Assembly: GCA_051252195.1 (NCBI GenBank)
Contig: JBPOGD010000006.1
Coordinates: 144,551 to 208,550, forward strand
Source of the DNA: Akkermansiaceae bacterium
Lineage (GTDB): Bacteria > Verrucomicrobiota > Verrucomicrobiia > Verrucomicrobiales > Akkermansiaceae
DNA length: 64,000 nucleotides
Direction of reading: 5' to 3'
A program made the translations under genes and the position numbers. How positions within the stretch are numbered: the first letter of the stretch is position 1; each line of letters starts with the position of its first letter. Of the stretch, positions 2,027-21,453 are shown one piece after another. Under the pieces are notes generated by a model. The model was not told where the DNA came from, searched no databases, and saw only the letters and a list, made by a program, of their open reading frames with translations.

Positions 2027-2326
2027 TTACTTCCCTTTATTGATGAGTGCAGTGAGTTGACCCGCTTTGTCCAAGATCGCTGTCGTGTCACATCCGTGGG
2101 TGTAATAATTCTTGAGTAGCATCGCCACCATGTTAGGAGTCAGCTTATAGGGCTTCGTGAGGAGAACGTCGCGAAGGCTTTGTTTCTCGTTGTCACGTAA
2201 GATTACAATGGCCTGCTCGTGGGATTCGCTAGGGATCAGTTTTTCGATCTCCTCTTGAAGTCTTTTAGGAGTAGATTTTGGAAATCCGAAAGTTGAAGTA
2301 GGCGAGTTTTGTGGTTCTTCAGGCAT
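2027..2326 (-). CDS. hypothetical protein (99 aa)
   Basis: ORF only; no recognised family. Confidence 0.35.
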   Translation of the reverse strand: MPEEPQNSPTSTFGFPKSTPKRLQEEIEKLIPSESHEQAIVILRDNEKQSLRDVLLTKPYKLTPNMVAMLLKNYYTHGCDTTAILDKAGQLTALINKGK

Positions 2327-2505
2327 AGTGGTTTTGGTGAAAAGTGTTGCGGCTAAGGTTAGATCCTAGGTTAGGAAATGCAGTAGCCCTATGGCATAGG
2401 CTTCAGCCGTATGAAGAGTCAATAACAACAAAAACTACAGACTTGTGAAAGGGTATACTAAACGGGTGAACGCAAGAGGTAAGGTCCAATACGCTCTAGC
2501 AACTT

Positions 2506-5500
2506 CTAAGGTTCTAGTACCTCGACGCGAAGCCTCACAAATCGTCGAGTCTTCGCAGCATCTTGAATGAGCACCATCAGCATGCCATCAGCACTGTTTG
2601 GCAAAGTATCGACCTCAGAGTCATAGAGTGTTTCTGGCCAAATCACGAGATCATCAGAGGCTTCTACGATATACCTGATACTGGATAATGAAGAATTACG
2701 TGGGAATTCAAATTGAAGATTCTCTCCCTCCTTGTTGATGACAGGCTTAATTATTTCCGCGTCAACGGTGGTAGGGTCTCCTCCTAGCGCAAATTCAAGA
2801 AGCTCAGCGAGGCCGTCTCCATCAATATCAGAATTAGCATCAACCAGGTGGTCATCATGATAATCTTTTTTCCATGTTTGAAATTCTGTCAACAGGAGGC
2901 TCTCGTCAGAGCCCAAACCTGATGGCGAGGAGGAACTGGTTTGAATGAGGATTTTATCAATGATGCAGCCTGGCTCTCTCATCCACAAATAAAGGGTGTT
3001 CATTCCTTCGGCTAGATCGACGGTACTTCCAGATTGCTTCCATGTGTTTGCCGTAATATTGATTTGAGCTGCATTAGAGGCATCAGCTACGGTTCCTGCG
3101 AAAATGGAATCGCTGGAGCTATCAGAGCCGCTTCCTAATACGTAAACGTAGTAGCTGCCAGCTGTCGCGATATTGAGAGAATAGGTGACATAGGTTCCTG
3201 CCCCTGCTGTTGTAGAACTACCAGAGTTCGTAAGCGCTTGGATAGCATTGTCAGTGTTAGCCCCACTAGCACCTGATAACGTGACTATTTGCCAACTTTT
3301 ACCACCTACTTCCGTCATTGTTTGAAAGTTTTCTGCTTCTATGCTGACGTAGTTCGACTCTTGGTAAAATGACGTTCCCGTAATTGGTGACGCCACAGCT
3401 TCCTCGTCAATAACGAGGTCAAAGGTAGCGGAATCAGCCTGACTAAGTGAGTCAGATACAACGAGAGTAAAACTGAATGATCCTGCTGCTGTTGGGATGC
3501 CCTGCAGCACACCTTGAGAGGAGATCGTCAGCCCTGTTGGCAGGTTGCCACTTTCTAGTGACCATGAGTAGCTAGGCTCGCCTCCTGTCGCGGTAAAGGT
3601 GTGAGTCAAGGCTTGATTCACTGCTCCATTAGGAATGAGAGAGCCGGCGACGACCAGAGGTTCAGGTGGAGGCTCTTCACCTATGACGAGAGACAACAGC
3701 TGTAAATCGCTTTCCCCCGCACTATCTCTCACTTCAATAATGAAGGATGAATTTCCCAGAGCAGAAGGAGTTCCCGCTAAAGTGCCTTCGCTAGAAACCG
3801 TGATCCCTGCTGGCAGGTTGCCACTGTTGATCGTCCAAGTATAGGGAGCCACGCCACCTGCTGCCGTTAGTGACTCAAAATATGCGGTATTGATTATCCC
3901 TGGGGTAAGCGAAGTTGTGATGACGTTCAGCACACCTCCTTGTGTGGATGGTTCACCTACTACGCTTGTATGATAGAAGATACTATCACTTTGCCCTCCA
4001 GCAGAGGCGGTGATGGTGAATTGGTAAGTTCCTGCCGTCGTAGGTGAGCCCGCGAGCACGCCTCCTAAGCTGAGCGTCATTCCATCAGGAAGTATCCCAG
4101 ATGAGAGAACCCATGTTTTACTCCCAGTGCCTCCTGCCGCGACAAGAGTCTGCGAAAAACCTACCCCAATCTCAAAATCACGAAAATATCGTTGTTGTAT
4201 GACTAATGGAAAGGTGCTGCCACTGGGAGGAGTAAAGCTGCTCGCTGGCCCACCATAGAATGATGGGCCTACCTCATCCCGTTCAAGAGGCGCTGCGAAA
4301 CTAGTTGAGGTGCTATTTACCTCAGAACACCCTGCGTCATAAGGCGCTAAGCGCAGTCGACCACTGATATCTGAGCTGAGACGACTCTCTGCAATATCCA
4401 CATGGTCTACTGCAATACTGCTAGAACTTGGCAGATGAAAGCCCAATGACTCATCACTAGTAAGTTGGGGGTCGGTGCCATAAGTAACTCCAGCGAGACC
4501 ACTGTTACCGTAGCTACCAGCTGCGTGGTAAACGATGTTGTTCTTAAATTCTATTTCAGAGGTGCTGTACTGGATATCGAATATATTTCCGTCTCCAGAG
4601 GCGCTCTGCACGATGTTATTGGAAAACTCCACACCACTAGGTATGACCCCGTCCGACTTATTCTCACCGATGTTGATGGGCTGATGACAGTTGACAAAGG
4701 TATTGTTATAAATTGTTGCCCCATCAGCTGCCTCATAGCCGTTACTGATGTCATCGCTTGGCCAGTCATTATCGCCAGTCATCACAACCAATGCAGAGCG
4801 GAGGCCTGACCCGCCAATACTCTCGAAGTAGTTATTTTTAACCACATGATTTCTCCCGATAATGCGCACTCCTGACTCGCGCGACCCACCGGTTCCAAAG
4901 AAGAAGTTCCCATCGATGGTACAGTCATCACCATGACGCATCGTCATCTGACCATCGCAGTCGCGATAGGTGTTATTCCGATAAAGGTTTCCCCTAGATT
5001 TATTAGAAATCACCTCCATTTCAGAACCAGTATCAGATTTGATAGCTTGATAGAACAGGTTCGACTGCACGATGCATGACATGTTGTAATGCTGCTTCGT
5101 GCTATCCGCGACGCGGACGGACTCGTAACCATTCACACCTATTTCATCACGTGTACCGAAGTAGTTCTTCTCCATGAGGTGGTTCCGCGCAGTCTCTGGA
5201 TCGCCCTCAGAGCTTGGGTTTGGCTTGATAAAGACGGTGGCGTTATACGTCGATTTACCCTCGAAGCTATTATGATCAATTCGGTGGTTGTACCCTTCGA
5301 TAAACAGCCAGTTCGTATCGTCGATTCCTTCATTGAAATCTTTAAATTGACAGTTCGAAACACGGCAATACGTCGAATTCGCTTCAAGCCTAATAATCCC
5401 CTCCTTCTCTCCATTACCACCATTACCATCAAAGCTGAGTCCCGCGATCGTTATGTGACTTCCTTTGACATGAATGCGGGTAGCCCCCTCAAACTTCGCG

Positions 5501-5748
5501 CCTCCTAACTCAAGCGCATAAATATAGACAGGAGAGGTAGCCGTCCCAGCAACATCGATATCGACATCCACATCACTATACACGCCCGATGTAAGCTCAA
5601 CAATATCCCCAGCAGAGAGATCTCCTAGCACCGACTCTAACTCGGCAGTACTACTCACTTGATAGACATCCGCATGAGTATTTGACGGAATAAGGAAGCC
5701 AAGAAACCATGCTATCGAGAGACATGTGTGAAGGGTTATGAATTTCAT
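2506..5748 (-). CDS. secreted right-handed parallel beta-helix polysaccharide-lyase-like protein with tandem Ig-like (GxLPxGxxxxxxGxLxGTP) repeats, a carbohydrate-binding-like module and a C-terminal Ca-binding-type D-rich segment
   Basis: N-terminal signal peptide MKFITLHTCLSIAWFLGFLIPSNTHA. Beta-helix hallmarks (NNTYRDCDGQMTMRHGDDCTIDGNFFFG, repeated N/G-rich rungs). Three to four repeats of ...SGxLPxGMTLSxxGVLAGxPTTAGTY.... A module TGTSFYQESNYVSIEAENFQ.... DANSDIDGDGLAELLEFALGGDP near the C-terminus. Confidence 0.7.
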   Translation of the reverse strand: MKFITLHTCLSIAWFLGFLIPSNTHADVYQVSSTAELESVLGDLSAGDIVELTSGVYSDVDVDIDVAGTATSPVYIYALELGGAKFEGATRIHVKGSHITIAGLSFDGNGGNGEKEGIIRLEANSTYCRVSNCQFKDFNEGIDDTNWLFIEGYNHRIDHNSFEGKSTYNATVFIKPNPSSEGDPETARNHLMEKNYFGTRDEIGVNGYESVRVADSTKQHYNMSCIVQSNLFYQAIKSDTGSEMEVISNKSRGNLYRNNTYRDCDGQMTMRHGDDCTIDGNFFFGTGGSRESGVRIIGRNHVVKNNYFESIGGSGLRSALVVMTGDNDWPSDDISNGYEAADGATIYNNTFVNCHQPINIGENKSDGVIPSGVEFSNNIVQSASGDGNIFDIQYSTSEIEFKNNIVYHAAGSYGNSGLAGVTYGTDPQLTSDESLGFHLPSSSSIAVDHVDIAESRLSSDISGRLRLAPYDAGCSEVNSTSTSFAAPLERDEVGPSFYGGPASSFTPPSGSTFPLVIQQRYFRDFEIGVGFSQTLVAAGGTGSKTWVLSSGILPDGMTLSLGGVLAGSPTTAGTYQFTITASAGGQSDSIFYHTSVVGEPSTQGGVLNVITTSLTPGIINTAYFESLTAAGGVAPYTWTINSGNLPAGITVSSEGTLAGTPSALGNSSFIIEVRDSAGESDLQLLSLVIGEEPPPEPLVVAGSLIPNGAVNQALTHTFTATGGEPSYSWSLESGNLPTGLTISSQGVLQGIPTAAGSFSFTLVVSDSLSQADSATFDLVIDEEAVASPITGTSFYQESNYVSIEAENFQTMTEVGGKSWQIVTLSGASGANTDNAIQALTNSGSSTTAGAGTYVTYSLNIATAGSYYVYVLGSGSDSSSDSIFAGTVADASNAAQINITANTWKQSGSTVDLAEGMNTLYLWMREPGCIIDKILIQTSSSSPSGLGSDESLLLTEFQTWKKDYHDDHLVDANSDIDGDGLAELLEFALGGDPTTVDAEIIKPVINKEGENLQFEFPRNSSLSSIRYIVEASDDLVIWPETLYDSEVDTLPNSADGMLMVLIQDAAKTRRFVRLRVEVLEP

Positions 5749-5940
5749 GAGAGGGGGTTTGAAATACGGTTATCGAATGCGCGCTTATCATGTCTGAAAA
5801 CAGTCCGTTCGATATGGATTTCAATATACTATTTCTTCACTATTGCCTATCAGATTCTCTGAGATAAACCTCAACAGCCAAGGCTTATTCATGACCATAA
5901 AAACTACTCGCCAGTGATAAGAGAGAACAGGCTACTCCTC

Positions 5941-6100
5941 GTTCATTTTCAACCACGGATAGCACGGATTTTCACGAATCGTTGCTTGGCTATTGAGTTC
6001 GTTTTCAACCACGGAAATGACGGAAGGCGCGGAAAGTAGAGCTGAAAGAAATTCACTATTCTACATTCACCATTCTCAATTCCACCACCAGTCTGTGATT
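5941..6100 (+). repeat. Copy C of intergenic repeat family (about 125 bp near-identical to copy A), includes CACGGAT-N-CACGGAT-N-CACGAAT direct repeats
   Basis: 5954-6072 is nearly identical to 7601-7718 with 2-3 mismatches. It flanks the triple-RidA gene on the side opposite copy A. Confidence 0.7.
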
Positions 6101-6157
6101 GGTGCGCTTTGACGTTAGATTTGTAGAGGAATATATACCATGGAAATAAAATGCCAG

Positions 6158-7393
6158 TTATACATGTGGAGGAGTGCCTTCACAGTTAGACACCACGGCA
6201 TCAATTTGCACCAAAGCATTCATAGGGATCGCTGAAACGCCGACGGTTGTCATCGCAGGAAGATCGCTGTTGAAAAATGTCGTGTAAACTTCGTTCACTG
6301 CATCAATATCTGCGACGTTCTTAAGCTGGATATTTATCTTAACGACATCATCAATCACGTGGTCGACGCTTTCTACAATGGCCTTAATATTATTGAGGCA
6401 TTGCTCGGCCTGCTCTTTGACACCACCTGCTACCATTTCACTTGTTGTTGGGTCTAGAGGCAATTGACCTGAAATGTGATTGTAATGAGAAAAAGCAACC
6501 GTGTGTGAGTAGTCAGCCTTAGGAGCATTTTCCGTATTACTTGCCTCTATGACGAGTAAGCTGGTGTCTTCAGGAAGTTGTGGGGGGGTGCCATCTCCAT
6601 GCGACACAGCAGTATCTATTTGCACCAGAGCATCCATAGGTAGAGCTGAAGCGTTGACGATTGTCCGCGCAGGAACATAGCTTGGGAAAAATTCTGCACA
6701 GACTTCGTTGACCGCGTCGATATCTGAGATGTTTTTGAGGAATATCGTGGTTTTAACCACATCGTCCATCACGTGATCGATACTTTCTAGAATTGCCTTA
6801 ATGTTGCTTAAGCACTGTTCAGTTTGTTCTTTGACACCACCCGCTATCAACTCACCCGTTGTTGGATCGATAGGTAATTGAGCTGAAAGATTATTGTAGT
6901 GAGAAAAAGCGACGGTCTGTGAGTAGAGACCTTTGGGTGCCTTTTTCGTGTTTCTGGAAACCTTGATGAGATCGCAGGGATCTTGTGGAGCGGTGCCTTC
7001 ACCGTTTGAAATAAGCGCATCAATTTGCACCAAAGCATCATCTAAAGGTAAGGCCGCAACTGCGACGATCGTCCGTGTAGGAAGCTCGCCGTTGAAAAAT
7101 GCTGTATAAACGGCGTCTACCGCGTCGATATCAGAGATGTTCTTGAGGAAGATCGTGATTTTAACAACATCGTCCATCACATGGTCGATACTTTCTACAA
7201 CGGCTTTGATATTTGCTAAGCACTGTCCAGCCTGCTCTTTGATTCCACCAGCTACCATCTCACCCGTTTTGGGATCGATAGGTAATTGAGCGGAAAGATT
7301 ATTGTAGTGAGAAAAAGCGACCGTTTGTGATGATACAGAACTTACTGGTGCATTCGCCGTGTTTCTTGAGTTTTTGATAATGTTGTCGCTCAT
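6158..7393 (-). CDS. triple-domain RidA/YjgF/TdcF (reactive intermediate deaminase) fusion protein, three tandem RidA domains in one chain
   Basis: The 411-aa protein is three units of about 137 aa, each with the RidA pattern ...YSQTVAFSHYNNLSAQLPIDPTTGELIAGGVKEQTEQCLSNIKAILESIDHVMDDVVKTTIFLKNISDIDAVNEV...PARTIVNASALPMDALVQID.... The DNA shows the matching three-fold periodicity of about 411 bp. Confidence 0.85.
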   Translation of the reverse strand: MSDNIIKNSRNTANAPVSSVSSQTVAFSHYNNLSAQLPIDPKTGEMVAGGIKEQAGQCLANIKAVVESIDHVMDDVVKITIFLKNISDIDAVDAVYTAFFNGELPTRTIVAVAALPLDDALVQIDALISNGEGTAPQDPCDLIKVSRNTKKAPKGLYSQTVAFSHYNNLSAQLPIDPTTGELIAGGVKEQTEQCLSNIKAILESIDHVMDDVVKTTIFLKNISDIDAVNEVCAEFFPSYVPARTIVNASALPMDALVQIDTAVSHGDGTPPQLPEDTSLLVIEASNTENAPKADYSHTVAFSHYNHISGQLPLDPTTSEMVAGGVKEQAEQCLNNIKAIVESVDHVIDDVVKINIQLKNVADIDAVNEVYTTFFNSDLPAMTTVGVSAIPMNALVQIDAVVSNCEGTPPHV

Positions 7394-7415
7394 ATTGATA
7401 TGTCTCGTGTCATAG

Positions 7416-7532
7416 CATGAAGCGCGCCAGAGTGAGATTGATAGGAACCTAGACCACTTTCTGACCGGAGCCAGTTACACCAAAGCACTTCTCTATCTTG
7501 AGACAGGGACACGGAAGTCGAGCGGGGAGTAA
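7416..7532 (+). pseudogene. 3'-terminal fragment, without start, of a gene homologous to the small ORF 10395..10643
   Basis: The plus-frame translation HEARQSEIDRNLDHFLTGASYTKALLYLETGTRKSSGE* aligns with the C-terminus HEAHRSEIDGNLDHFLTGASYQKALLYLKTGTRRPCGE* of ORF 10395..10643, and several differences are synonymous. There is a stop codon directly upstream at 7413-7415. Confidence 0.55.
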
Positions 7533-7960
7533 ACAGCTGCGACTGCTAGATATTTTTGACCACCCTCCTTTGCCGAGGCTTCGGTGGATAAACTGAATCG
7601 CACGGATTTTCACGAATCGTTGCTTGGCTATTGAGTTCGTTTTCAACCATGGAAATGACGGAAGGCATGGAAAGTAGAGCTGAAAGAAATTCACTATTCT
7701 ACATTCACACCATTCCACGAATCTATCCTCTCTATCCCAGCGGGGTAACATCTACTAGCTTGGGGTTACGCAACCCCAAGAAACCGATCCCTCAGAATCT
7801 GCATGCTAGAGGCATGCCATCAGCTCTTGGGAAGTTATGGGGTAAATCGGGAGACCGCTTTGGCTATGACGCTTGGCTAGGCCCCCCCACATATCACTTA
7901 GATGCCACTCCCTCAGGGGTGGGGGAATTGAGCTGGCGCGGGTCTCGGGGTGTTTAACCC
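7416..7960 (+). repeat. Copy A of composite repeat of about 550 bp (gene 3' fragment, CACGRAT direct repeats, hairpins, GCATGC-N5-GCATGC)
   Basis: Collinear similarity to 10565-11000 (copy B) and partial similarity to 5941-6100 (copy C). Hairpin cttggggtt-acg-aaccccaag at 7751-7772. Confidence 0.7.
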
Positions 7961-8130
7961 CGAGCTATCTGATGTTAGCCTTTCAGGGTAGGTGGTGTTG
8001 AAATGTTAAAGATCTATTCGTGATCTCTTTTTTGCGATTACGGAACCAAGAATCAAGGAGCGGCTCGCTTCACGACCTTTTTCTGGTTCATACTTGCATA
8101 AGAAGGGGGCGATAAAGGAGTCGATGAGGC

Positions 8131-8886
8131 TTATGAGATGAGGCGGGCTACGTAGATCCGGTGTTGGGCCTCTTCTGATTCTTCATGGGATTTTGCCGGG
8201 TGCTCGGTCAAATTGAAGCCGGCTTTTTTTAGTGCCATTTCAAGTTTAGGCGATGGGATGGCCATCCAGTAGGCTAGGCAGCCGCCGGGGTTGAGTGATT
8301 CCCGGAGTAATTTCATAAAACTTGGGGTGTAAAGATTGACATTGTCCTCAGTGATCACCGCGTCGGGCGTATCGTCGATATCGATCAAGATGGCATCATA
8401 AGTGTCGCCTTCTCCTAGGCAGTCGAAGAGATCGGCGAGAATGACGTTTGTTCTCGGGTCTTCTAGCAAGGGGCCATTATGCTCAACGAGATAAGTGCGG
8501 TTCCATTCGATGACTTGATTCATCAATTCCGCCACATCGACGGTGGCCGGAGAGCCAACCAATTCCAGAACTCGCTTCAGGGTGAATCCCATGCCCAGTC
8601 CTCCAATTAATACTCGCGGGTGCTCTGGCCGGTTCGTCGCCCCTTCCAGCAGATCGACACAGCCTAAATCAGCAAGCATCTGTTCGGAATATGTCAGGTT
8701 GGTGCTCATCAGCTCTAGCCCATTGTATTCGAGGATGAAATCTGAGCCCTCCTTATACAGGGCGAGCAGGTTGCCATCGGGCAGGCTGGCTTTGTCCAGC
8801 AGTGTGTAGGGCGTCATGGCCTCAAGTATCGATGAATTTGCTCCTTCGACAAGAGCATTGGTCGAGCCATTAAAATTTATCTTCAT
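8131..8886 (-). CDS. spermidine/spermine synthase-family (polyamine aminopropyltransferase-like) protein
   Basis: Motifs VLIGGLGMGFT...DAILIDIDD...GGCLAYW are typical of the PABS/class-I SAM-binding fold. I chose the start at ATG 8886 (MKINFNG...); the ORF track extends upstream to 8946. Confidence 0.65.
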   Translation of the reverse strand: MKINFNGSTNALVEGANSSILEAMTPYTLLDKASLPDGNLLALYKEGSDFILEYNGLELMSTNLTYSEQMLADLGCVDLLEGATNRPEHPRVLIGGLGMGFTLKRVLELVGSPATVDVAELMNQVIEWNRTYLVEHNGPLLEDPRTNVILADLFDCLGEGDTYDAILIDIDDTPDAVITEDNVNLYTPSFMKLLRESLNPGGCLAYWMAIPSPKLEMALKKAGFNLTEHPAKSHEESEEAQHRIYVARLIS

Positions 8887-9056
8887 AAGGAAAGGTGAGG
8901 GCTCGTATTTCCTCGCTGATTTCCTTAATACCATTGAGCACAGCAAAAGTGGTAAATAGCCGAGGTGAAGATAACTTTAGTACTCCAGATCGCTGTCCAG
9001 AAATATCCTTTATCCAGCCTTGCAGATCGGCAAATCTCTCTGACATTTCTACCGCC

Positions 9057-10229
9057 ATGTTTTTCCCTCCTAGTCGCTCAGCCGCTCTCGATCGCTTAGA
9101 GAAATTTCTGCCTCATGCTGCTAAATACGCGGGAACCAGGAATTTTGACCTCGGTTCTGAAAACCACAGCGGCGTCTCGCAGCTCTCGCCTTACATTCGC
9201 ACCCGCCTCATCACTGAGGAGGAAGTCACACGTGCTGTGCTGGAAAAACACAGCGCCAAAGCAGCTGAAAAATACCTTCAAGAAATCGCCTGGCGCACCT
9301 ACTGGAAAGGGTGGATGGAGTCTCGTCCCAGCGTCTGGGATCATTATACATCCAGCCTCGCTGAGCTCTCCCGCCTGACTCATCTGCCAGATTACACCCG
9401 AGCTGTATCAGCTCAGACTGGTATAGAGTGCTTTGACGCATGGGCCACTGAGCTGCGCGATACAGGCTACCTCCATAACCATGCCCGAATGTGGTTCGCC
9501 TCGATCTGGATCTTTACCCTCAGGCTACCATGGCAGCTAGGTGCTGATTTTTTCCTCCATCACCTCCTCGATGCAGATGCAGCCGCTAACACGCTCTCAT
9601 GGCGATGGGTCGCTGGCATTCACACCAAAGGGAAACACTATCTAGCTCGTGCATCAAACATCCAGAAATTCACCCACGGTCGCTTTGATCCCGAGGGATC
9701 GCTCGATGAGCAGGCCATGCCCATCACCGATGAGACAGAATTTGAAAAAGCACCACTTCGCCTACCTCAGAGAATCTCCCCACAAGGGAGAGTAGGTCAC
9801 CTCATGTTCTCCGATGACCTAGCACCTATTCCTGCAGAAAGTATGAAAGTAGCCGCCACCGCAGCCTTTATCCCACCACCATTATTGACATCACCTCTCG
9901 TCACCGAGTTCATTACAGGTGCAGTCTCCGATGCCCTAGAGCGCTCAGAGGGCACGCTCCTCAGTGGATCATTAACCAGTGCTGTTCAAGATTGGATCTT
10001 AGCAGAAAAATTAGACCACATCGTCATTTCCTACCCCACAGTGGGACCCACGAGAGAATTTTTAAAAACCCAGAGACTTTCTATCGAGCCCAATTACTTC
10101 CTCCGTGATTGGGATAGGCAGCTATGGCCACACGCGCATGCAGGATTTTTCAAGCTCAAGAAAGCTCTGCCAAAAATCTTTGCCTCACTCACTTACCCAC
10201 GGGCAGACGACCTTTTTCCTGACTTGTAG
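9057..10229 (+). CDS. photolyase/cryptochrome FAD-binding-domain protein lacking the N-terminal alpha/beta photolyase domain
   Basis: ALDRLEKFLPHAAKYAGTRNFDLGSENHSGVSQLSPYIRTRLITEEEV... and WRTYWKGWM match the start of the photolyase FAD-binding domain. I placed the start at ATG 9057; the upstream extension overlaps the converging gene. Confidence 0.65.
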   Translation: MFFPPSRSAALDRLEKFLPHAAKYAGTRNFDLGSENHSGVSQLSPYIRTRLITEEEVTRAVLEKHSAKAAEKYLQEIAWRTYWKGWMESRPSVWDHYTSSLAELSRLTHLPDYTRAVSAQTGIECFDAWATELRDTGYLHNHARMWFASIWIFTLRLPWQLGADFFLHHLLDADAAANTLSWRWVAGIHTKGKHYLARASNIQKFTHGRFDPEGSLDEQAMPITDETEFEKAPLRLPQRISPQGRVGHLMFSDDLAPIPAESMKVAATAAFIPPPLLTSPLVTEFITGAVSDALERSEGTLLSGSLTSAVQDWILAEKLDHIVISYPTVGPTREFLKTQRLSIEPNYFLRDWDRQLWPHAHAGFFKLKKALPKIFASLTYPRADDLFPDL

Positions 10230-10394
10230 TCAAAAAACCTGCCTGACACTTTGAATCTATAATAAAGCGAGAGAAGAAGGCGTCGCCATCCCAGCATTGT
10301 AGAATGCGAATTTTCAAAGGTATCGGCGTGTTTTTTGTTTGCGAATTCAGTTGCCCGAAGACCGTTTTCACGGAAAACTTTAGCACACACCATC

Positions 10395-10643
10395 ATGATG
10401 TTTTCTGATTTAGCCGATGCCCTCGAAGCCCGAATTGCTGTGATATCCGATCATGAATTCCGTGACAGGGATCCCGAAGCTCACCTCGAAGCCCTTATAA
10501 ATGCGAGCCAAGCGATCACTTCCTGGCACGAAGCGCACCGGAGTGAAATTGATGGGAACCTCGACCACTTTCTCACCGGCGCCAGTTACCAGAAGGCACT
10601 CCTCTATCTTAAGACAGGGACACGGCGGCCGTGCGGGGAGTAA
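10395..10643 (+). CDS. small hypothetical protein (82 aa) whose 3' end is part of the repeat family
   Basis: Its C-terminal 38 codons are conserved, with synonymous changes, in the fragment at 7416-7532. ATG at 10395. Confidence 0.45.
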   Translation: MMFSDLADALEARIAVISDHEFRDRDPEAHLEALINASQAITSWHEAHRSEIDGNLDHFLTGASYQKALLYLKTGTRRPCGE

Positions 10644-11000
10644 GACTCTGCAACTCACTAGGAGTTTTTGACGGAAAGGGCGTTTCACCTCTGTTTTTTA
10701 ATCAATGCCATACGCCTCGTTTTTTTGACCACGAATCGCACGAATTTTCACGAATCTTTGCTTGGCTACTGAGTTCATTTTGAACCACGGAAAGTATGGA
10801 AAGCACGGAAATGTCGAAAAGCTGAACCAAGAAAGCTGAACCATTCAGAACTCTTCGTATTTATCATTCTAAACTCACTCCACTCCACGCATTCACCCTC
10901 TTTATCCCAGAGGGATAACATCACCTAGCACGGGGTTGATACCCCGTGAATAGAAACCTCCCATAAAATAAAGCATGCCGGAGGTATGCCATCGAAAGAG
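10565..11000 (+). repeat. Copy B of composite repeat (includes the 3' end of ORF 10395..10643, CACGAAT x3 direct repeats at 10730-10756, hairpin 10911-10930)
   Basis: About 75-80% identity to copy A over about 430 bp. Hairpin cacgggg-ttgata-ccccgtg replaces the copy-A hairpin at the same relative position. Confidence 0.7.
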
Positions 11001-11088
11001 CCTAAATGTTGGTTTTGCCAATTTCAAGAATCGAGAACTACCTCCTTTCTGCTTACGCGAAATGATGCACATGCCTGCCCCCTTTTAG

Positions 11089-12330
11089 TTACTCCTCGAA
11101 AATACTAATCGCTTGTAGACTTTCGGAATCATACTCGACTTCGCCGCCTTTGAGTTCCTGGTTGAGGATTCCTTCGAATAGAGGTTTTTTCCAATAATCT
11201 GGAGTTTTCACGGTGGAGACTCCCGGTGAGAGGCTAAAGCCCGGCTTATCTTTTGGGCGTGGATCATGATCCTCCGGCCAGACACCAAAGAATGCTTGGC
11301 CTACCTTCCATCTGAAATAGCCACGTCCACCAGGTTCAACCACGGTCATTGCCTCACCCACAAACTGCCACTCAATGCTTAGACCAACGCTTGCTGTTTT
11401 GCTCATGCTCATGATTCTCATGTCGCGTGTTGCCTTGTCCACTGCGGCATGAATGTAGTCGTCCCTGAGTTTCTCTCCAGCTTTCGAAGCGGGAAATAAA
11501 TCACCCGCTGGAATGAGTTCAGGCCTGCTTAGCATCTTTTTCCCCATGGTTTTGGCTAAAATAGCAAACCTCTCTTTCGCAACCTTGGACATACGTTTCT
11601 TTTGAAATGCACCAATGACTGCCTGCCTACCGGTATCACTAAACTGCGCCTTGGCGGGGCTTGGCTTAGCTTTTTTAGATTGCTGAACCTGTTTATGCAG
11701 GATGAGTGCCTCTTTCATGGCCTCTAAAGTCGCTGCAGGTGACTGCAAGGCAGGTAAAATATCCATGACCACACCATCGATATCACAGAAGTAGATGGCG
11801 ATTTCTCCACTGATCGATCCTTTAAAGCTTCTACCCTCGCCTAAATTAAACGTCACCGTCTTCACATCTGCCACACTTTCCCATACGGGCACGAAATCTT
11901 CCTTCAGCATTTTGGTAACCCGACTATCGGAGAACGTCACGGTTCTCGCTAATTTGCCATTGGCTCAGCAAAACTCCTCATCCAGCTTACCAAACAAATG
12001 CAGCATCAGGATCGGTTTCCCCGTCGCTTTTGATTCTTCGATGGCCTCGGCGAGTGAACGTTTCCAGATGACATCCGTCTGTGATCCCCACTGCCCTGTG
12101 ATTCTTCCCAATGCCGTGCGAGCTCTGGCTTTTAATCGAGGATCTTCAGCTCCAGCCCATTTTCTCAGTTTCGGTAGCATGACTTTTCCTTGGCTCACAC
12201 ATGAATCGATGCCCCCGCTAGCGATGCTCTTATCAGCACTCATGAGAGCTTGTTGCACCTTGTCCTCAGCGCAGAAGCTGGGACTCCATGTTCCTGCTAA
12301 TACCAACATCATACAGATTTTATTTTTCAT
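11089..12330 (-). CDS. secreted thioredoxin-fold (DUF255-like) protein interrupted by a single in-frame TGA at 11965-11967; candidate selenoprotein, otherwise a nonsense pseudogene
   Basis: ORFs 11965..12330 and 11089..11940 are in the same frame and only the TGA separates them. Read through, the sequence is ...KPILMLHLFGKLDEEFC-TGA-ANGKLARTVTFSDSRVTKMLKEDFVPVWESV.... That places the stop at the thioredoxin-fold active-site position, between strand beta1 and helix alpha1. A 6-bp hairpin, GAGAAC-CGUGAC-GUUCUC in the RNA, starts 18 nt after the UGA. Confidence 0.5.
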
Positions 12331-21266: not shown

Positions 21267-21453
21267 ATATACAACCTGAAGTGTTGTGTGAATGGCGTCA
21301 ATCTAACAGAAGTCATGGTTTTTTATCGTATGAGATTACATACTTCTGGCATGTTTTGTTTCTTGTGGGTTGTGTTCACGGGGTATTCGAACCGCGTGCT
21401 ATGTGATATTATCCCGCTGGGATAGGGGGAGAACTCTAATCTTCCTTCGCAGG

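Follow-up and report, generated by a model that had tools for sequence, protein, structure and literature searches.

A triple-RidA protein in an Akkermansiaceae genome: three RidA-type domains in one chain, a predicted pseudo-trimer fold and an Arg-to-Met substitution in one active site

We analyzed a 64,000-nucleotide (nt) stretch of DNA from an Akkermansiaceae bacterium (contig JBPOGD010000006.1, positions 144,551 to 208,550; hereafter the window), focusing on a gene that encodes a triple-RidA protein, i.e., three tandem Rid/YjgF domains in a single polypeptide. The gene is one uninterrupted open reading frame (ORF) on the minus strand, which the initial annotation, made from the sequence alone, had not specified; it runs from an ATG start through 411 codons to a stop codon, with no internal stops. 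The encoded protein is 100% identical to an NCBI entry named "MAG: RidA family protein [Akkermansiaceae bacterium]" (P0001; MAG, metagenome-assembled genome), encoded on a 293-kb contig. Repeated intergenic sequence lies on both sides of the gene, and all features are listed in Table 1.

To characterize the domains, we split the protein at the amino acid (aa) boundaries given in Table 1 and scanned each third separately with profile hidden Markov models. Every third alone passes the cut-off of Pfam PF01042 (Ribonuc_L-PSP; 27.3 bits), covering ~106-115 of its 121 profile positions, and the single-third matches to NCBIfam TIGR00004 ("Rid family detoxifying hydrolase", RidA-type) span nearly the full profile. 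The whole 411-aa protein matches both models over three stretches (256.6 bits for PF01042 and 299.4 bits for TIGR00004), and the curated RidA-subfamily cut-off of TIGR00004 (106.25 bits) is passed by the whole protein as well as by domains 2 and 3 alone. Pairwise protein identity is 71% between domains 1 and 2, and 64% both between domains 1 and 3 and between domains 2 and 3, while each domain shares 34-39% identity with E. coli RidA. At the DNA level, 300-nt units are 73% and 64% identical at spacings of 414 and 408 nt. These measurements agree with the initial annotation, which had described three RidA domains of ~137 aa with 60-70% identity and had proposed the per-third profile check, which all three domains pass with PF01042.

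Table 1 Features of the triple-RidA (3x-RidA) locus and its surroundings in window coordinates (CDS, coding sequence)
Feature	Position	Strand	Remarks
3x-RidA CDS	6158..7393	-	three tandem Rid/YjgF domains in one ORF; PF01042 and TIGR00004 matches, identical NCBI protein
RidA domain 1, aa 1-137	6983..7393	-	PF01042 84.1 bits; TIGR00004 100.7 bits
RidA domain 2, aa 138-273	6575..6982	-	PF01042 97.0 bits; TIGR00004 109.1 bits
RidA domain 3, aa 274-411	6161..6574	-	PF01042 93.6 bits; TIGR00004 110.6 bits
Repeat module 1, copy A (core 5959-6070)	5942..6073	+	3' of RidA gene; ~194 nt upstream of 1080-aa lyase start
Repeat module 1, copy B (core 7597-7708)	7580..7711	+	~187 nt upstream of RidA start codon
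Repeat module 2	7694..7860	+	after module 1 in copies B and C; absent from copy A
Third, diverged copy C	10719..11010	+	module 1 10719-10853 (~84%), module 2 10861-11010; another intergenic region
Further repeat-family matches	21334-21429 (module 2, inverted), 7944-7985	-	mosaic repeat family
1080-aa polysaccharide lyase, probably secreted	2506-5748	-	Chondroitinase_B domain, three He_PIG Ig-like repeats, GH115_C-like domain

The usual RidA is a homotrimer with clefts between adjacent units. We built an AlphaFold2 model of the window protein on an alignment of 55 diverse three-domain Rid proteins, obtaining a predicted local distance difference test score (pLDDT) of 89.3 and a predicted template modelling score (pTM) of 0.91, with low-confidence stretches at residues 133-140, residues 268-279 and the last five residues, which correspond to the two linkers and the C-terminal tail. 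In Foldseek searches against PDB, single domains of the model superpose on RidA/YjgF structures (2dyy, 2b33 and 1x25; template modelling score TMt 0.92-0.93, root-mean-square deviation (rmsd) ~1.1 Å), with 30-41% identity to the solved chains. The whole chain aligned only with the chorismatases 5a3k and 5ag3, over 368-378 columns, and no PDB entry contains a three-domain RidA chain. A RidA-type trimeric barrel folded from one chain, with clefts between its domains, is a well-supported prediction, and the covalent pseudo-trimer envisaged in the initial annotation is supported to the same extent by this single-chain model.

We then examined the active-site residue Arg105, which in RidA binds the substrate carboxylate and is essential (PMC4433059). 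Its equivalents are R107 in domain 1 (codon CGG at 7073-7075) and R243 in domain 2 (codon CGG at 6665-6667; invariant among 20 close relatives), whereas domain 3 carries Met381 (codon ATG at 6251-6253), such that the residue is conserved in two of the three domains for which its presence was to be checked. The ATG of domain 3 is more than a one-base change away from the paralogous CGG codons. All three domains retain Arg in 17 of the 20 close relatives; of the others, one shows Ile at this position in domain 3 and one shows Leu in domain 1, and the domain-3 Met is specific to the window copy. From this replacement, we infer that the domain-3 site, one of the three active sites, is probably dead in this protein. 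Met381, together with a Ser at the Tyr17 position of domain 1, also bears out the earlier suggestion that the three sites are not equivalent. Across 44 more distant three-domain clusters, an approximate, alignment-based count finds all three Arg residues in 26, with losses in domain 3 only (9 clusters), domain 2 only (4), domains 1 and 3 (3), and all three domains (2).

We consider it very likely that the window protein is a member of the 3x-RidA class, a one-chain pseudo-trimer and, by homology, an imine deaminase. Two short flexible linkers (~aa 133-140 and ~268-279) join three RidA-subfamily domains, and a single 44-kDa chain would form the barrel that ordinary RidA assembles from three 14-kDa subunits. 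The fold is predicted from the model, and family knowledge underlies our reading of the activity and of the effect of R381M: the enzyme would most likely hydrolyze reactive 2-imino/enamine acids (e.g., 2-aminoacrylate-derived imines) at the clefts between neighboring domains, where the conserved Arg would bind the substrate carboxylate. Fusion would fix the stoichiometry and leave three sites free to diverge; within the clade, every domain position has a conserved sequence of its own, and in the window copy only two sites retain Arg. The gene itself is a stand-alone member of a very conserved, mostly marine clade, which has probably moved horizontally between phyla, and its position in this Akkermansiaceae genome is a variable intergenic islet.

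The three-domain protein, with a length of 409-413 aa and unchanged domain boundaries, recurs at 79-89% identity in over 100 database clusters, with hosts that include Shewanella, Vibrio, Photobacterium, Moritella, Endozoicomonadaceae, Ancylomarina, Labilibaculum and other Bacteroidales. The two linkers are near-invariant within this clade (ISNGEGTAPQxPCxLIKV and VSHGDGTPPQLPEDT), and the three-domain ORF is found in complete isolate chromosomes (Shewanella psychropiezotolerans CP041614.1 and S. halifaxensis HAW-EB4). Within the clade, domains at the same position are 81-85% identical between species, compared with 61-67% between positions; a single triplication therefore took place before the clade spread. 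Beyond the clade, an exhaustive representative search returned 10,995 family matches, and the best 150 of these include ~45 separate 50%-identity clusters of ~370-460 aa that match the query over more than one domain. In most of the other three-domain clusters, a protein's own domains are far more alike than like the window domains (~20-40%), with no positional correspondence to the latter. In one distant three-domain Rid protein (P0255, 397 aa), the domains are 93-95% identical to each other, which implies either that the triplication is of very recent date or that concerted evolution is strong, and which we take as evidence that new 3x proteins keep arising. Judging from these comparisons, the 3x architecture has either arisen repeatedly or been homogenized by concerted evolution.

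Variation within the clade was also observed. Four-domain versions occur in metagenomes (P0002, 565 aa; P0003, 634 aa), with an extra loop (FFPDSSIARTxxYVPAR) in some domains and, in P0003, an additional unrelated insert of ~70 aa; these may be genuine 4x-RidA proteins, or else the internal repeats may have been misassembled in the metagenomes. Two distinct 3x-RidA paralogues are present on different contigs in Photobacterium sagamiensis (P0011/P0035) and in P. lipolyticum (P0020/P0026).

To examine how the gene spread, we compared its coding sequence with copies from other genomes. Nucleotide identity to the window copy is 87% for a Logan contig, 84% for both Shewanella and a JGI contig, 81% for Ancylomarina (Bacteroidota), and 76-77% for the Vibrio, Moritella and Endozoicomonadaceae copies, and nucleotide homology among copies extends only ~10 nt upstream of the ATG and no more than 42 nt past the stop codon. 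Synonymous divergence (dS, Nei-Gojobori) is 0.51-0.91 between the window copy and its closer relatives, 0.33 between Shewanella (L001) and Ancylomarina (L006), and 0.19 between Shewanella and the JGI contig (L005), with ratios of nonsynonymous to synonymous divergence (dN/dS) of ~0.1-0.3; strong codon constraint could lower dS somewhat. Because vertical inheritance leaves synonymous sites saturated at the distance between phyla, these low values point to fairly recent cross-phylum transfer under purifying selection. The gene is always stand-alone, and its neighbors differ in every genome examined. No recognizable mobile element accompanies it in the comparison of L001, L006 and L005. An integrase fragment adjoins the gene in L005, and umuDC-like genes adjoin it in another genome (L007).

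The site itself is also variable in related genomes. Within the window, the neighbors are the chondroitinase-B-like lyase gene (Table 1) and a methyltransferase-like gene (8131-8946), neither of which is functionally related to RidA. Four related Verrucomicrobiales/Akkermansiaceae MAGs retain the methyltransferase gene at ~81% nucleotide identity, but neither a RidA gene nor a lyase gene occurs within 7 kb. In the window, the 3x-RidA gene and the 1080-aa lyase gene occupy the stretch from the methyltransferase gene to a conserved 99-aa gene (2027-8946), whereas in one of these MAGs (L010, Verrucomicrobiales, 7001-11460) the corresponding stretch contains three different genes, namely two small ORFs and one for an ABC-F ATPase. 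The 3x-RidA gene thus sits in a variable islet. Given the low dS, the different neighbors everywhere and this variable site, horizontal transfer of a single 3x-RidA gene between phyla is likely. The GC content of the gene (0.45, compared with 0.47 for the window; 0.44 at third codon positions) reveals no compositional anomaly, so that composition neither favors nor excludes transfer.

Searches of the surrounding noncoding sequence returned little. No riboswitch or leader was detected with Rfam (E <= 1) in the intergenic regions around the gene or at six homologous loci, an alignment of upstream regions from seven genomes is conserved only in the ~20 nt closest to the ATG, and a promoter and terminator scan found nothing beyond shuffle expectation. 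In Moritella (L008, 3711-7233), the gene lies directly 3' of genes for a carbamoyltransferase (OTCace; ornithine/putrescine) and a carbamate kinase, with an agmatine deiminase-type gene and amino-acid permeases nearby. This is the only context examined that hints at a pathway, namely carbamoyl phosphate or agmatine catabolism, and it echoes a previously proposed link between RidA and carbamoyl phosphate (PMC4433059). Elsewhere in the window, a photolyase-related FAD-binding ORF (8895-10229, plus strand), listed with a GTG start, runs ~50 nt into the beginning of the methyltransferase ORF, which is divergently oriented (minus strand); the true starts of these ORFs are probably further in, because methyltransferase homologues match only from residue 2-43 on.

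The initial annotation had described 125-bp direct repeats at 5954-6072 and 7601-7718 bracketing the gene and had read them as a sign of acquisition or duplication by repeat-mediated recombination. Near-identical direct repeats are indeed present, with a gap-free core of 112 nt (96.4% identical, offset 1638 nt) that extends to ~132 nt by profile, although the earlier intervals were 9 nt out of register and a third copy on the same strand (copy C) had been missed. Copies A and B each lie ~190 nt upstream of the start of a minus-strand gene. Module 1 (~130 nt) is rich in CACGGA/CACGAA motifs and module 2 (~165 nt) contains short GC hairpins, and a 35-nt repeat core occurs three times, compared with zero expected from shuffles. 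Together, the third copy and the second module indicate a mosaic intergenic repeat family rather than a unique bracket around the RidA gene. The repeats have no Rfam match, their predicted RNA folding is not significant (z -0.2 to -1.2), a profile search of 89 loci found no match, and the repeat is absent beside the gene in seven other genomes or contigs.

It is nonetheless conceivable that the gene was acquired by way of the direct repeats, or that they are the trace of its acquisition. For instance, a circular molecule with the gene and a single repeat copy could have entered a resident repeat by single-crossover homologous recombination, duplicating the repeat on both sides. Such an event would fit the greater similarity of copies A and B to each other (96%) than to the third copy (~84%), the bracketing of exactly one foreign-looking gene (the RidA ORF is the only ORF between copies A and B), and the different gene content of the methyltransferase-to-99-aa-gene interval in L010. 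On the other hand, the segment homologous to other copies of the gene stops within the bracketed interval, ~190 and ~45 nt short of the repeats, and in no other genome examined does the repeat accompany the gene. The third copy also occupies an unrelated intergenic region, and module 2 occurs only with copies B and C, a pattern typical of mosaic dispersed intergenic repeats. Considered as a transposon or integrative element, the segment has no transposase, integrase or terminal inverted repeats, its repeats being direct; no empty site was recovered, and exact scans for a 30-nt repeat core in genome and metagenome contig collections returned no other copies. We therefore regard acquisition of the gene as plausible and a part of the repeats in it as doubtful.

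Several observations weigh against our assignment of the protein as a 3x-RidA imine deaminase. Domain 1 alone, at 100.7 bits, falls slightly under the TIGR00004 cut-off, and a shallow alignment of only the 20 close homologues yielded a pLDDT of 40, so that the good model hinges on the diverse alignment. The equivalent of Glu120 is Gln in all three domains (Gln123, Gln258 and Gln396), and the Tyr17 equivalent, Ser in domain 1, is Tyr in domains 2 and 3; both residues have been suggested to help position substrate and water. Our literature and structure searches found no 3x-RidA structure or enzymology, leaving fold and activity to prediction and homology, and no conserved gene neighborhood indicates a substrate among the genomes examined. 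Finally, ~80% conservation across phyla might point to a role more specific than generic imine clearance. The substitutions at Tyr17 and Glu120 are tempered by the finding that Salmonella RidA with Ala at either position keeps its activity with little effect (PMC4433059), and these positions are accordingly not strictly defining of the RidA subfamily.

These observations could instead reflect a neofunctionalized pseudo-trimer, in which a fused RidA scaffold with three deliberately non-equivalent sites would serve some other or narrower reaction or binding function, on the model of chorismatase or cyanuric acid hydrolase, in place of general imine deaminase activity. Consistent with this, Gln replaces Glu120 throughout the clade in all three domains while most other 3x clusters retain Glu, the domain-specific residues and linkers are near-invariant across phyla, conservation is very high under purifying selection, and the best whole-chain structural match is an enzyme of different chemistry. 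That match, however, is only 15% identical and no chorismatase model was matched, whereas the domains remain close to E. coli RidA and to solved RidA chains (identities above), the score of every domain reaches or comes near the RidA-subfamily cut-off, 17 of the 20 close relatives carry the essential Arg in each domain, and the Glu120 and Tyr17 positions tolerate Ala in Salmonella RidA. We consider neofunctionalization unlikely and retain the assignment as a 3x-RidA imine deaminase. A more speculative extension, which we hold to be quite improbable, is that the marine 3x-RidA clade would be a horizontally mobile single-gene unit with three permanently non-equivalent sites (Gln for Glu120 throughout, Tyr17 lost in domain 1) tuned to different or non-canonical reactive metabolites, in which recurrent loss of the domain-3 Arg would be a path to an asymmetric enzyme with regulatory or dead sites; if so, this loss (R381M here; ~9 of 44 other clusters) would represent an intermediate toward chorismatase-like single-site pseudo-trimers.

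An artefact, in which a tandem array of three separate RidA genes was joined through missed stops or collapsed repeats, had been named in the initial annotation as a refuting case and is conceivable in a metagenome bin given unit similarities of 64-73% at the nucleotide level, but we regard its probability as negligible and the case as excluded, because 1233 nt run without a stop or frameshift, the units are too diverged for collapse, the same ORF, boundaries and linkers recur in over 100 homologues including complete isolate chromosomes, and the architecture is already in the literature.

As a discovery, the gene is of little import: both the architecture, which is widespread and routinely annotated, and its interpretation were published in 2015, and the exact protein is already deposited and annotated. 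3x-RidA is a named and apparently uncharacterized class with thousands of relatives, and full-text literature searches (EF_0115, tandem/triple RidA) found no experimental 3x-RidA work after its naming. A covalent trimer would allow any one of its three interface sites to be mutated without changing the others, an option that a homotrimer does not give, and the natural R381M variant and the clade-wide replacement of Glu120 by Gln are test cases already at hand. That a housekeeping-type single gene has apparently been transferred across phyla is a modest curiosity.

Among the known systems compared, cyanuric acid hydrolase/barbiturase (the "Toblerone" fold) and the FIST domain of FBXO22 show no detectable similarity in sequence to the window protein; the active site of cyanuric acid hydrolase is single and central, and FIST lacks one. 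The chorismatases FkbO/Hyg5/XanB2 (5a3k, 5ag3) share 15% identity with the window chain in structural alignment, catalyze a different reaction (chorismate hydrolysis) and have much more diverged domains. Chorismatase identity was considered as a candidate and rejected, as only RidA-type models were matched in Pfam and NCBIfam (E <= 0.01). Canonical homotrimeric RidA/YjgF/TdcF/UK114 (PDB 2dyy, 1qu9, 2uyk) has the same fold per domain (TMt ~0.93, rmsd ~1.1 Å), and the essential Arg is shared by window domains 1 and 2, but three subunits there correspond to one chain here, with non-identical sites, Met in domain 3 and Gln in place of Glu120. The closest system is 3x-RidA as named by Niehaus et al. 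(2015, BMC Genomics 16:382, PMC4433059), who called it a covalently linked trimer and gave EF_0115 of Enterococcus faecalis V583 as an example. The window protein may not be orthologous to EF_0115, because the domain identities indicate that many 3x clusters represent separate triplications or concerted evolution. It likewise comprises three tandem RidA-subfamily domains in one polypeptide, the arrangement that was read as a covalent trimer in 3x-RidA, but its particular clade is mostly marine and very conserved and carries Gln in place of Glu120.
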